Assembly (NCBI RefSeq): GCF_013122565.1
Contig: NZ_CP053258.1
Origin: Escherichia coli
GTDB lineage: Bacteria; Pseudomonadota; Gammaproteobacteria; Enterobacterales; Enterobacteriaceae
Reading direction: 5' to 3' (one strand)
DNA length: 64,000 nucleotides
The position numbers are program-made. Positions 9,001 through 15,000 of this stretch are shown in pieces. Every line of letters begins with the position of its first letter. Positions within the stretch are counted from its first letter, which is position 1.

Positions 9001-12000
9001 TTTCTTAACGAACAGCCGGAACTGAAACGCCTGGCAGAACAGCTGGGGCGTTCCCGGGAAGCCAAATCAATACCGCGCAACGATGCGCAGATGGAAACCT
9101 TCCGCACCATGGTGCGCGAACCGGCGACGGTTCCTGAGCAGGTTGATGGTCTGCAACAAAGCGATGATATTTTACGTCTCCTGCCGCCAGAACTGGCGAC
9201 ACTAGGGATAACGGAACTGGAGTATGAGTTTTACCGTCGGCTGGTGGAAAAACAGTTGCTCACCTATCGCCTGCACGGTGAGTCGTGGCGAGAAAAAGTG
9301 ATCGAACGTCCGGTGGTACATAAAGATTACGACGAACAGCCGCGCGGACCGTTTATTGTCTGTGTGGATACTTCCGGCTCAATGGGCGGCTTTAATGAAC
9401 AGTGTGCGAAAGCGTTCTGCCTGGCCTTGATGCGCATTGCTCTCGCTGAAAACCGGCGCTGTTATATTATGCTATTTTCCACCGAGATCGTCCGTTATGA
9501 GCTTTCAGGCCCACAAGGCATCGAACAAGCAATCCGTTTTTTAAGCCAGCAGTTTCGTGGCGGCACCGATCTTGCCAGTTGTTTTCGCGCCATTATGGAA
9601 CGCTTGCAAAGCAGGGAATGGTTTGATGCCGATGCGGTGGTGATTTCTGATTTTATCGCCCAGCGGTTGCCTGACGACGTGACGAGTAAAGTGAAAGAGC
9701 TACAGCGGGTACATCAGCATCGCTTTCATGCCGTGGCGATGTCGGCACACGGCAAACCCGGCATCATGCGCATTTTCGATCATATCTGGCGCTTTGATAC
9801 CGGGATGCGAAGCCGCCTGCTCAGACGCTGGCGGCGATAAATTATTACAGCAGAGAAGGGACGCTCTCGCGAACAGCAGCTGGCCATACTCCACACTGAA
9901 CCTGGCCGATATGCGGCAGTTGCAGCAGCAGCATGGTCAAACGAGACTGGCCGATACCGCCGCCGATGGTCTGCGGCATTTCACCGCGCAGCAGCGCCTG
10001 ATGCCACTCCAGCTGCAGACGATCTTCATCACCGGTCAGCGCCAGCTGATGCTTCAGCGTCTCGGCATCTACACGGATCCCCATGGAAGAAAGCTCAAAC
10101 GCATCTTCCAGTACCGGGTTCCACACCAGAATATCGCCGTTCAGACCCGCATGGCCCAGCTCTGACGGGGTGCTCCAGTCATCATAATCCGGTGCGCGCA
10201 CGTCATGGCGATGACCATCGCTCAGCTTGCCGCCAATCCCGACCAGGAATACCGCGCCAAGATCTTTCGCAATCGCCCGCTCACGCCCTTTGGCATCGAG
10301 ATCCGGATAACGAGACAGTAACTCCTGGCTGTGTACGAAGTGGATCTGATCCGGCAGGAACGGTGCCAGGCCAAACTCTTCGCTAACCGCAGCTTCGGTT
10401 GCTTTAATTCCCGCCCAGATCGCCTCTACCGTGCTTTTCAGAGTCGAGAATTGACGCTCGCCGTCGCCCATTACGCGTTCCCAGTCCCACTGGTCTACAT
10501 AGACCGAGTGCAACGGAGAAAGACGGTCTTCATCGGGGCGAAGGGCTTTCATGTGCGTGTACAGCCCTTCGCCCGCGCTGAAGTCGTGTTGCCCTAAGGT
10601 CTGACGTTTCCATTTCGCCAGTGAATGAACCACTTCGAACTGGGCATCAGGCAGAGCTTTCACTTTTACCTGTACCGCTTTTTCACAGCCCGACAAGTTA
10701 TCCTGCGTGCCATCCCCCACACGGCTAAGAATCGGCGCCTGGACTTCGATCAGCCCCAGACGTTCTTCCAGTTGACGAGAAAAGTGAGATTTCACGAAGC
10801 TAATTTGGCGTTGTTTGGCAATGTAAGCGGTTTTCATTTTTTATACTCCTGCGTCCTGTTGCTTATGATTAAGCAACAAAAACCGACACACATGCAATAA
10901 TCATTCAATAAAAAGCCTCGCGTACTTTTGATTCATTAAAAAAGAAGGCTAAAATAGAATGAATCATCAATCCGCATAAGAAAATCCTATGGAAAATTAT
11001 CTGATCGACAATCTGGACCGAGGCATCCTGGAAGCATTAATGGGCAATGCGCGCACCGCTTACGCCGAACTGGCGAAACAATTTGGCGTCAGTCCGGGGA
11101 CGATTCACGTTCGAGTAGAGAAAATGAAGCAGGCGGGAATCATTACCGGGGCGCGTATTGATGTCAGCCCGAAGCAGCTCGGTTATGACGTAGGCTGCTT
11201 TATCGGCATTATATTAAAGAGCGCCAAAGACTATCCTTCGGCGCTGGCGAAACTGGAAAGCCTTGATGAAGTGACCGAGGCGTACTACACCACCGGCCAC
11301 TACAGCATCTTTATAAAAGTGATGTGCCGTTCGATCGATGCTCTCCAGCATGTACTTATCAACAAGATCCAAACAATTGATGAAATTCAGTCCACCGAGA
11401 CATTGATCGTCCTGCAGAACCCGATCATGCGTACCATCAAGCCCTGATCGGCTTTTTTAATCCCATACTTTTCCACAGGTAGATCCCAACGCGTTCACAG
11501 CGTACAATACGCCACTCTTAATAAAGGTGGCGGTTTATGGCAGATATCACTCTTATCAGCGGCAGCACCCTCGGCGGTGCCGAATATGTAGCAGAACACC
11601 TGGCTGAAAAGCTGGAAGAGGCGGGTTTTACCACCGAAACGCTGCACGGTCCGCTGTTGGAAGATTTATCTGCCTCTGGGATCTGGCTGGTTATCAGCTC
11701 AACCCACGGTGCCGGAGATATTCCGGACAACCTTTCTCCTTTCTATGAAGCATTGCAGGAACAGAAGCCCGATCTTTCTGCGGTCCGCTTTGGCGCAATC
11801 GGTATTGGTAGTCGAGAATATGACACCTTTTGTGGGGCTATCGATAAACTCGAGGCAGAACTCAAAAATTCCGGTGCAAAACAGACAGGCGAAACACTGA
11901 AGATCAACATTCTTGATCACGACATTCCGGAAGATCCGGCAGAAGAATGGCTGGGATCGTGGATTAATTTACTCAAATAAGCATACAGATCGTGCGATCT

Positions 12001-15000
12001 ACTGTGGATAACTCTGTCAGGAAGCTTGGATCAACCGGTAGTTATCCAAAGAACAACCGTTGTTCAGTTTTTGAGTTGTGTATAACCCCTCATTCTGATC
12101 CCAGCTTATACGGTCCAGGATCACCGATCATTCACAGCTAATGATCCTTTCCAGGTTGTTGATCTTAAAAGCCGGATCCTTGTTATCCACAGGGCAGTGC
12201 GATCCTAATAAGAGATCACAATAGAACAGATCTCTAAATAAATAGATCTTCTTTTTAATACCCAGGATCCCAGGTCTTTCTCAAGCCGACAAAGTTGAGT
12301 AGAATCCACGGCCCGGGCTTCAATCCATTTTCATACCGCGTTATGCGAGGCAATCACCATGTTTTATCCGGATCCTTTTGACGTCATCATCATTGGCGGG
12401 GGTCATGCAGGCACCGAGGCCGCGATGGCCGCGGCGCGTATGGGTCAACAGACTCTGCTTTTGACACACAATATCGACACTCTGGGGCAGATGAGCTGCA
12501 ACCCGGCGATCGGCGGTATTGGGAAGGGACATCTGGTAAAAGAAGTGGATGCACTCGGCGGTCTGATGGCGAAAGCGATCGATCAGGCGGGTATCCAGTT
12601 TAGGATACTAAACGCAAGCAAGGGACCGGCAGTTCGCGCTACCCGAGCTCAGGCGGATCGTGTGCTCTACCGTCAGGCGGTACGTACGGCGCTGGAGAAC
12701 CAACCGAACCTGATGATCTTCCAGCAGGCGGTTGAAGATCTTATTGTCGAAAACGATCGCGTGGTCGGTGCTGTTACCCAAATGGGACTGAAGTTCCGTG
12801 CCAAAGCCGTCGTGCTCACCGTTGGGACGTTCCTCGACGGTAAAATTCATATCGGTCTGGATAACTACAGCGGTGGCCGTGCTGGTGATCCGCCGTCCAT
12901 TCCGCTTTCTCGCCGTTTGCGTGAACTGCCGCTGCGCGTTGGTCGTCTGAAAACCGGGACACCACCGCGTATTGATGCTCGAACCATCGACTTTAGCGTG
13001 CTGGCGCAACAGCATGGTGATAACCCAATGCCGGTATTCTCGTTTATGGGCAGTGCGTCCCAGCATCCCCAGCAGGTGCCGTGTTATATCACTCATACCA
13101 ACGAGAAAACCCATGATGTGATCCGCAGTAACCTCGATCGTAGCCCAATGTACGCAGGGGTGATCGAAGGTGTCGGCCCACGCTACTGCCCGTCGATCGA
13201 AGACAAAGTCATGCGCTTCGCCGACAGAAATCAGCATCAGATCTTCCTTGAACCGGAAGGGCTGACCTCTAACGAAATTTATCCGAATGGTATCTCCACC
13301 AGCCTGCCGTTCGATGTGCAGATGCAAATCGTCCGCTCTATGCAGGGGATGGAAAACGCGAAGATCGTGCGTCCGGGTTATGCCATTGAGTATGACTTCT
13401 TCGATCCTCGCGACCTGAAACCGACGCTGGAGAGCAAGTTTATCCAGGGGCTGTTCTTTGCTGGTCAAATTAACGGCACTACCGGTTACGAAGAAGCCGC
13501 TGCGCAAGGTTTGCTGGCTGGTCTTAACGCTGCCCGTCTGTCTGCAGACAAAGAAGGTTGGGCTCCGGCGCGTTCTCAGGCGTATCTCGGAGTACTAGTT
13601 GATGACCTGTGCACTTTAGGAACCAAAGAACCGTATCGTATGTTTACTTCGCGCGCAGAATATCGTCTGATGCTGCGCGAAGATAATGCGGATCTGCGTT
13701 TGACTGAAATTGGTCGTGAACTGGGCCTGGTGGATGACGAACGTTGGGCGCGCTTTAACGAGAAACTTGAGAATATCGAGCGTGAGCGTCAGCGTCTGAA
13801 ATCGACCTGGGTAACCCCGTCGGCGGAAGCTGCAGCCGAAGTGAATGCTCACCTGACTGCGCCGCTTTCCCGTGAAGCCAGTGGTGAAGATCTGCTGCGT
13901 CGTCCGGAAATGACTTATGAAAAATTAACCACGCTGACGCCGTTTGCCCCTGCGTTGACAGACGAACAGGCGGCGGAACAGGTTGAGATTCAGGTTAAAT
14001 ACGAAGGTTATATCGCGCGCCAGCAAGATGAGATCGAAAAGCAGCTGCGTAACGAGAACACCCTGCTACCCGCGACACTGGATTACCGCCAGGTATCCGG
14101 TCTTTCTAACGAAGTGATCGCCAAACTTAACGATCACAAACCGGCCTCTATCGGCCAGGCTTCACGTATTTCTGGCGTCACGCCTGCGGCCATCTCCATT
14201 CTGCTGGTGTGGCTGAAAAAACAGGGTATGCTGCGTCGTAGCGCATAACGCATTAAAAATGCCTGGTAAGCACCCGCTTACCAGGCAACGCATCAAGAAC
14301 AGGTAATCACCGTGCTCAACAAACTCTCCTTACTGCTGAAAGACGCAGGTATTTCGCTTACCGATCACCAGAAAAACCAGCTTATTGCCTACGTGAATAT
14401 GCTGCATAAATGGAACAAAGCGTACAACCTGACTTCGGTCCGCGATCCTAATGAGATGCTGGTACGCCATATTCTCGATAGCATTGTGGTGGCACCGTAT
14501 CTGCAAGGTGAACGGTTTATCGATGTCGGCACCGGTCCTGGACTGCCTGGCATTCCACTCTCTATCGTGCGTCCTGAAGCCCATTTCACTCTGTTGGATA
14601 GCCTTGGTAAACGCGTGCGTTTCCTTCGTCAGGTGCAACATGAGCTTAAACTGGAGAATATTGAGCCAGTACAGAGCAGGGTAGAAGAGTTTCCTTCAGA
14701 GCCGCCATTTGATGGCGTAATTAGCCGCGCTTTTGCCTCTCTGAACGATATGGTGAGCTGGTGTCACCATCTTCCTGGTGAGCAAGGCCGTTTCTACGCG
14801 CTGAAAGGGCAAATGCCGGAAGATGAAATCGCTTTGTTGCCCGAAGAATATAAGGTCGAATCAGTGGTTAAACTTCAGGTTCCAGCCCTGGATGGCGAAC
14901 GTCATCTGGTGGTGATTAAAGCAAATAAAATTTAATTTTTATCAAAAAAATCATAAAAAATTGACCGGTTAGACTGTTAACAACAACCAGGTTTTCTACT

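Follow-up and report, generated by a model that had tools for sequence, protein, structure and literature searches.

A K-12-type chromosomal replication origin with a rare spacer base, predicted in an Escherichia coli genome without close relatives among complete genomes

The region between mioC and mnmG in Escherichia coli GCF_013122565.1 (contig NZ_CP053258.1) raises a simple question: does it carry an intact origin of replication, oriC, and do its few differences from the K-12 origin matter? The sequence analyzed, hereafter called the window, is a stretch of 64,000 nucleotides of this contig. A preliminary description of the window had proposed an intact oriC at 11995-12270, with canonical DnaA boxes, 13-mers and a high density of GATC sites. 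The analysis leaves us in very little doubt that 12004-12248 is the single chromosomal replication origin of an E. coli-type chromosome, and this origin should work exactly like the oriC of K-12. It is an ordinary, already known oriC and adds nothing new to the knowledge of this element.

The reverse complement of the window was aligned with the origin of K-12 MG1655 (NC_000913.3, where origin_of_replication is annotated at 3925744-3925975, between mnmG and mioC). Positions in oriC are numbered from the G of the BamHI site GGATCC, which is position 1 and corresponds to window 12270. Over the 245 bp of the minimal origin the alignment is gap-free, with 243 of 245 bases identical:

12004-12248, minus strand: minimal oriC, equivalent to K-12 positions 23-267 (window 12248-12004)

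Only positions 133 and 213 are substituted within the minimal origin, and neither belongs to a box. The intact oriC of the preliminary description is thus borne out: every motif that it named is present, the alignment holds, and the named boxes, the three 13-mers and the 11 GATC sites are unchanged. Its claim of a reverse orientation relative to K-12 stands in so far as the plus strand of the window corresponds to the minus strand of K-12; this reflects the strand that was sampled and not an inversion, as the flanking gene order is collinear. When a 321-bp query across the origin was compared with complete E. coli genomes, 5424 out of 5426 matched at 95% identity or more, and always on the chromosome.

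The DnaA boxes are distributed in the window as follows:

12003-12011, minus strand: DnaA box R4, high affinity, perfect consensus (TTATCCACA on the minus strand, TGTGGATAA on the plus strand), K-12 positions 260-268
12042-12050, plus strand: DnaA box R3, TTATCCAAA, one mismatch to the consensus, identical to K-12
12077-12085, minus strand: DnaA box R2, moderate affinity, TTATACACA, perfect consensus, K-12 positions 186-194
12128-12136, plus strand: DnaA box R5M, low affinity, TCATTCACA, identical to K-12
12183-12191, plus strand: DnaA box R1, high affinity, TTATCCACA, perfect consensus, K-12 positions 80-88

R4 had been placed exactly in the preliminary description; R1 had been correctly recognized, at coordinates one base too high (12184-12192). 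A search with the consensus TTATNCACA indicates that R1 is oriented opposite to R2 and R4, with the spacing observed in K-12. Three perfect boxes lie inside 189 bp at oriC, for a total of seven in the whole 64-kb window and a mean of 2.5 in shuffled sequences, and any 276-bp stretch of the window outside the oriC neighbourhood contains at most one. The sequence of R5M and its role, which is essential for unwinding, have been described (PMC6158602, PMC5716108), as has the essential role in unwinding of the R1-IBS-R5M module (PMC5716108). The low-affinity sites located between the strong boxes (R5M, tau2, I1 and I2 on one side; C1, I3, C2 and C3 on the other) appear unchanged compared to K-12. 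R5M was located explicitly, and tau1, tau2, I1, I3 and C1-C3 should be intact because the window equals K-12 everywhere except at positions 133 and 213.

The unwinding region and the sites of the accessory proteins were located in the same way:

12236-12248, minus strand: 13-mer L, GATCTATTTATTT, duplex unwinding element, exact K-12 sequence
12220-12232, minus strand: 13-mer M, GATCTGTTCTATT, exact K-12 sequence
12205-12217, minus strand: 13-mer R, GATCTCTTATTAG, exact K-12 sequence
12249-12260, minus strand: AT cluster flanking the L 13-mer, TATTAAAAAGAA, identical to K-12
12152-12164, minus strand: IHF-core-like site in the R1-R5M interspace (IBS1 region), GATCAACAACCTG, identical to K-12
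12051-12065: Fis consensus palindrome GAACAAC-G-GTTGTTC, fitting GnnYAnnnnnTRnnC, with its central base at window 12058

The consensus of the 13-mers is GATCTnTTnTTTT, and the AT cluster assists unwinding (PMC5742627). The three 13-mers are indeed present as reverse complements, as first described, but the span of about 12196-12260 proposed for them was loose: they occupy 12205-12248, and the additional bases on the right correspond to the AT cluster. The 56 bp from 12205 to 12260 contain 77% A+T and form, according to nearest-neighbour parameters, the least stable 56-bp duplex between 9 and 16 kb, with a stability of -58.7 kcal/mol compared to a mean of -79.3 (standard deviation 4.8) for the first 30 kb. 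IBS1 is located between R1 and R5M, and the IHF consensus is WATCAAnnnnTTR (PMC10380432, PMC5716108); on this basis we infer that the 13 bases at 12152-12164 are the IHF core. The Fis consensus, and the location of Fis between R2 and C3, are likewise taken from the literature (PMC10380432, PMC5742627), and the candidate Fis site GAACAACGGTTGTTC fits this consensus with either A or G at its centre. Fis binding at oriC is reported not to be important for initiation (PMC5742627).

In the minimal origin (positions 23-267), each of the 11 GATC sites occupies its K-12 position. The high GATC density first described for 11995-12270 was found again: this segment contains 13 sites, compared to 1.35 expected from the density of the window (313 per 64 kb; Poisson P ~2e-9), and other 276-bp stretches outside the oriC neighbourhood reach nine at most. 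Six GATC sites form a secondary cluster within 150 bp (window 11333-11482) at the 3' end of asnC, upstream of mioC, and a terminator-like hairpin is visible at 11439-11454. No RNA family was matched in the Rfam scan of the origin region.

The genes on either side of the origin follow the order rbsK-rbsB-rbsC-rbsA-rbsD-kup-ravA-viaA-asnA-asnC-mioC, then oriC, then mnmG-rsmG-atpIBEFHAGDC-glmU-glmS. This order is the same in K-12 and in O55:H7, and the first 25 kb of the window are collinear with E. coli O55:H7. The features that border the origin directly are the following:

11537-11980, plus strand: mioC, flavodoxin-like protein of 147 amino acids, intact open reading frame (ORF), transcribed toward oriC and through it
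12278-12305, plus strand: candidate gid promoter TTCTCA-16-TAGAAT upstream of mnmG, obtained by consensus scan only, identical to K-12
12359-14248, plus strand: mnmG (gidA), 629 amino acids, intact ORF with GIDA Pfam domains, transcribed away from oriC

In the collinear genome of O55:H7, mioC is annotated at matching coordinates, and the Pfam domain Flavodoxin_1 was identified in its product on an identical locus. The candidate gid promoter (1 site compared to 1.3 expected) is not significant alone; more generally, the promoters and terminators predicted in 11400-12420 were no more numerous than in shuffled sequences.

The base composition of the two strands agrees with the location of the origin. 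Computed base by base, the cumulative G-C curve of the 64-kb window is lowest at 12391, some 140 bp away from the 13-mers; the G-C skew is -0.044 to the left of this point and +0.039 to the right. In blocks of 500 bp the skew averages -0.044 for the left side and +0.047 for the right side (Mann-Whitney P = 4.5e-6). The location of the minimum upholds the idea, present in the preliminary description, that the locus is coordinate zero of the replichores: oriC anchors the window at the start of both replichores and sets the leading-strand orientation of all genes of the window.

How would this origin work? The mechanism described for K-12 would apply because nothing known to matter differs between the two origins; the roles of the oriC elements in K-12 have been established in previous work (PMC5742627, PMC10380432, PMC5716108, PMC6158602). 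DnaA would be bound constitutively to R1, R2 and R4, and the two opposed low-affinity arrays would then be filled cooperatively by ATP-DnaA. The DNA between R1 and R5M would be bent by IHF, the AT-rich 13-mers would melt, and the T-rich single strand would be held by the DnaA protomers on R1 and R5M. Two DnaB helicases would be loaded, leading to bidirectional replication. After firing, SeqA would sequester the hemimethylated sites among the 11 Dam-methylated GATC, and re-initiation would be blocked.

The two substitutions of the minimal origin are the following:

12138 (oriC position 133): A in K-12 replaced by G (C on the plus strand of the window), 2 bp beyond R5M, within the spacer that separates this box from the IHF site
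12058 (oriC position 213): A in K-12 replaced by G, at the centre of the Fis palindrome

Position 133 carries a base that is rare in the species. The K-12 61-mer around this position is found exactly in 4898 of 5423 complete E. coli genomes, a count in which a G allele with a second mismatch cannot be separated from the A allele. The window 33-mer centred on the substitution, which cannot be seeded by a genome carrying the A allele, matches a single complete genome out of 5426, that of strain RMDEC465, whose local identity to the window is 96.5%. Near oriC, five ordinary E. coli genomes with 98.7-98.8% identity to the window all have A. A sequencing error at this position was considered and rejected: the independent Logan assembly SRR11451224 is 100% identical to the window over 7890 bp including the origin (the exact match is a 70.6-kb contig, compared over 7.9 kb). 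The exact MnmG protein of the window was found on three contigs only, this one included, and its RbsA is ubiquitous.

The situation is different in other species. Scanning one genome per species for GATCATTANCTGTGAATGATCGG gave 55 Enterobacterales loci, with G at position 133 in 44 cases, A in 10 and T in one; the scan is not exhaustive, and no mainstream E. coli or Salmonella is among the 55 loci, though K-12 matches GATCATTANCTGTGAATGATCGG. Fifty-one full-length loci from other Enterobacterales species were then aligned. Position 133 is G in 40 of them, A in 10 and T in one, and position 213 is distributed between G (22), A (22), C (6) and T (1). In these loci the boxes and 13-mers are conserved at 0.86-0.99, a range in which the conservation of positions 125-147 results from the construction of the sample, chosen by exact match around R5M. 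The majority fraction is 0.93-0.99 for the boxes, with 0.99 for R1, 0.96 for R2 and 0.98 for R4, with a mean of 0.97 for the R 13-mer, and the window has the majority base at almost every box position. G is present at 133 in E. albertii and in a divergent "E. coli" (94% identical), and A in E. whittamii. Two genomes labelled Escherichia coli, SCPM-O-B-8794 (NZ_JAATUR010000025.1) and RMDEC465 (NZ_CM177019.1), are respectively 94.2% and 96.5% identical to the window near oriC and both carry G; their distances look too large for mainstream E. coli.

The window itself has no close relative among the 5426 complete E. coli genomes. The best matches reach 99.0% identity for 1-25000 (O55:H7/O157:H7), 97.1% at 74% coverage for 25001-50000, and 96.9% for 50001-64000. 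The window comes from an E. coli-type lineage not represented among these genomes. We interpret 133-G as a tolerated, probably ancestral state of the spacer, kept in this lineage, mainstream E. coli having fixed A. As a rare allele at a position outside the boxes, it is at most useful as a lineage marker. Position 213 has a wider distribution within the species, an exact copy of the window 61-mer around it occurring in 1269 of 5404 complete E. coli genomes, O157:H7 among them. This position lies 2 bp outside C3, since the R2-C3 spacing is 20 bp (PMC5742627). Both substitutions are probably neutral.

A first alternative is that the origin is functional but quantitatively altered: either 133-G, which adjoins R5M on the border of the interspace bent by IHF, or 213-G, central in the Fis palindrome, would change the timing or the synchrony of initiation in this lineage. 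It draws on the presence of A at 133 in essentially all complete E. coli and on the fact that R5M and the surrounding module are essential for unwinding. Set against this, G is the majority base at 133 in the other Enterobacterales (40 out of 51 species, E. albertii included), all of them with an identical R5M context. Moreover, position 133 is outside the R5M 9-mer and, judging from a 33-bp IHF footprint that starts inside tau1 (PMC5716108), it should also be outside the segment protected by IHF. As for position 213, G is found in about a quarter of E. coli genomes, and Fis binding at oriC reportedly does not matter for initiation, as mentioned above. The cross-species data make such an alteration unlikely, and we give it a very small probability.

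The second alternative, that the sequence is a relic without activity, or an additional oriC copy that arose by cloning or duplication, and not the active chromosomal origin, is more improbable still. A few E. coli assemblies have two places that match oriC, so databases do contain duplications, but the window contains one cluster only, no box of which is damaged. This cluster lies in 64 kb of uninterrupted chromosomal synteny, with dnaA-dnaN-recF on the usual side and at roughly the usual distance, and the GC-skew minimum coincides with it. The last alternative, that GATC and DnaA-box-like words happen to occur together in an intergenic region of high A+T content, can be dismissed: short motifs do recur, and box-like words with up to two mismatches are not enriched at oriC (7, compared to up to 12 in the AT-rich island), but the segment is 99.2% identical over 245 bp to the experimentally defined K-12 origin, its GATC enrichment has the very low probability given above, and its three perfect boxes in 189 bp compare with a mean of 2.5 in the whole shuffled 64 kb. 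The alignment, the synteny, the skew minimum and the fact that the window contains a single copy exclude both of these alternatives.

We therefore retain the reading of 12004-12248 as a chromosomal origin that should work like that of K-12, against which three points have to be weighed. Firstly, 133-G is nearly absent from complete E. coli genomes and lies 2 bp from the essential R5M, so that a subtle effect on DnaA/IHF geometry is conceivable; there is a slim chance that, in this divergent E. coli lineage, 133-G measurably shifts the threshold for ATP-DnaA or the degree to which initiation depends on IHF. Secondly, the integrity of tau1, tau2, I1, I3 and C1-C3 is deduced from identity with K-12. 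Thirdly, we infer the firing of this origin from sequence identity and GC skew.

The remainder of the window was examined for the islands and for the dnaA region. A block of low G+C content, down to 30%, extends over about 31.0-45 kb, and a second block is present between tnaC and mnmE:

31045-37355, co-directional: chaperone-usher-type fimbrial cluster of 6.3 kb, after phoU; six ORFs of 249, 231, 248, 236, 807 and 192 amino acids; 41-50% G+C
37667-40306: type III effector ORF, 879 amino acids, from annotation in related genomes
40852-42039, minus strand: pentapeptide-repeat gene, between the two effector ORFs
42322-44748: type III secretion system effector EspY4-like ORF, 808 amino acids, from annotation in related genomes
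54277-56463: ShET2/EspL2-family effector ORF, 728 amino acids, intact, between tnaC and mnmE, in a segment of 35-41% G+C

The complete genome closest to this part of the window lacks the fimbrial cluster, whose usher corresponds to lpfC-O113 in other E. coli annotations. The region 37356-45000, with 30-34% G+C and a strongly positive GC skew, fills the interval between phoU and yieH. In one other E. coli genome bgl genes are annotated under the match, and K-12 presumably has the bgl operon in this interval. In the E. coli genome that matches best, the homologue of the ORF at 54277-56463 carries the annotation of a frameshifted type III effector toxin of the ShET2/EspL2 family. The small RNA STnc410 of enterobacteria was detected by Rfam between atpC and glmU (22549-22706, minus strand; 177.3 bits, above the gathering score).

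The window also contains rpmH-rnpA-yidD-yidC-mnmE and dnaA-dnaN-recF, the latter with the following coordinates:

61074-62477: dnaA, GTG start at 61074, N-terminus MSLSLWQQC
62482-63582: dnaN, followed by the start of recF

In the dnaA control region (60725-60950), nine GATC are present within about 225 bp, together with a perfect DnaA box TTATCCACA at 60856-60864 on the minus strand. Another GATC cluster is found in the 5' part of dnaA (61727-62062, 8 sites per 245 bp), and AsdA, the antisense RNA of the dnaA mRNA, was detected by Rfam at 61584-61664 on the minus strand (101.9 bits, above the gathering score). Three isolated perfect TTATNCACA boxes are located elsewhere: in kup (5692-5700, minus strand), in the 807-amino-acid fimbrial ORF (36389-36397, minus strand) and in the tnaB region (51661-51669, plus strand).

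The distance between oriC and dnaA is about 49 kb in the window and roughly 42 kb in K-12; the extra length is due to the horizontally acquired low-GC segments. The distances of these segments from the origin are about 19-33 kb and 42-44 kb, in line with the two foreign islands placed within about 45 kb of it in the preliminary description. They thus sit in the highest-copy part of the chromosome, and the consequence for gene dosage of islands near the origin is general knowledge.

Compared with the oriC of MG1655, the origin of the window is 99.2% identical over 245 bp. The two origins share without change the 13-mers, the AT cluster, the boxes R1, R5M, R2, R3 and R4, an IHF-core-like site, a Fis consensus and 11 GATC sites, and both are flanked by mioC and mnmG. 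The differences are limited to the two A to G substitutions at positions 133 and 213, a third substitution at position 289, outside the minimal origin, and the fact that the window is written on the opposite strand. The top matches to the origin of the window are O157:H7/O55:H7 and other strains with 213-G, at 99.4% over 321 bp, which differ from it only at positions 133 and 289; O157:H7/O55:H7-type strains carry A at 133, and the surrounding 25 kb are just 99.0% identical to the window. The oriC of other Enterobacterales (E. albertii, Citrobacter, Kosakonia, Buttiauxella, Erwinia, Dickeya and others) share a common architecture with that of the window, with conserved boxes and 13-mers and mostly G at 133, whereas their spacers diverge and their overall identity to the window is 91-94% even in other Escherichia species.

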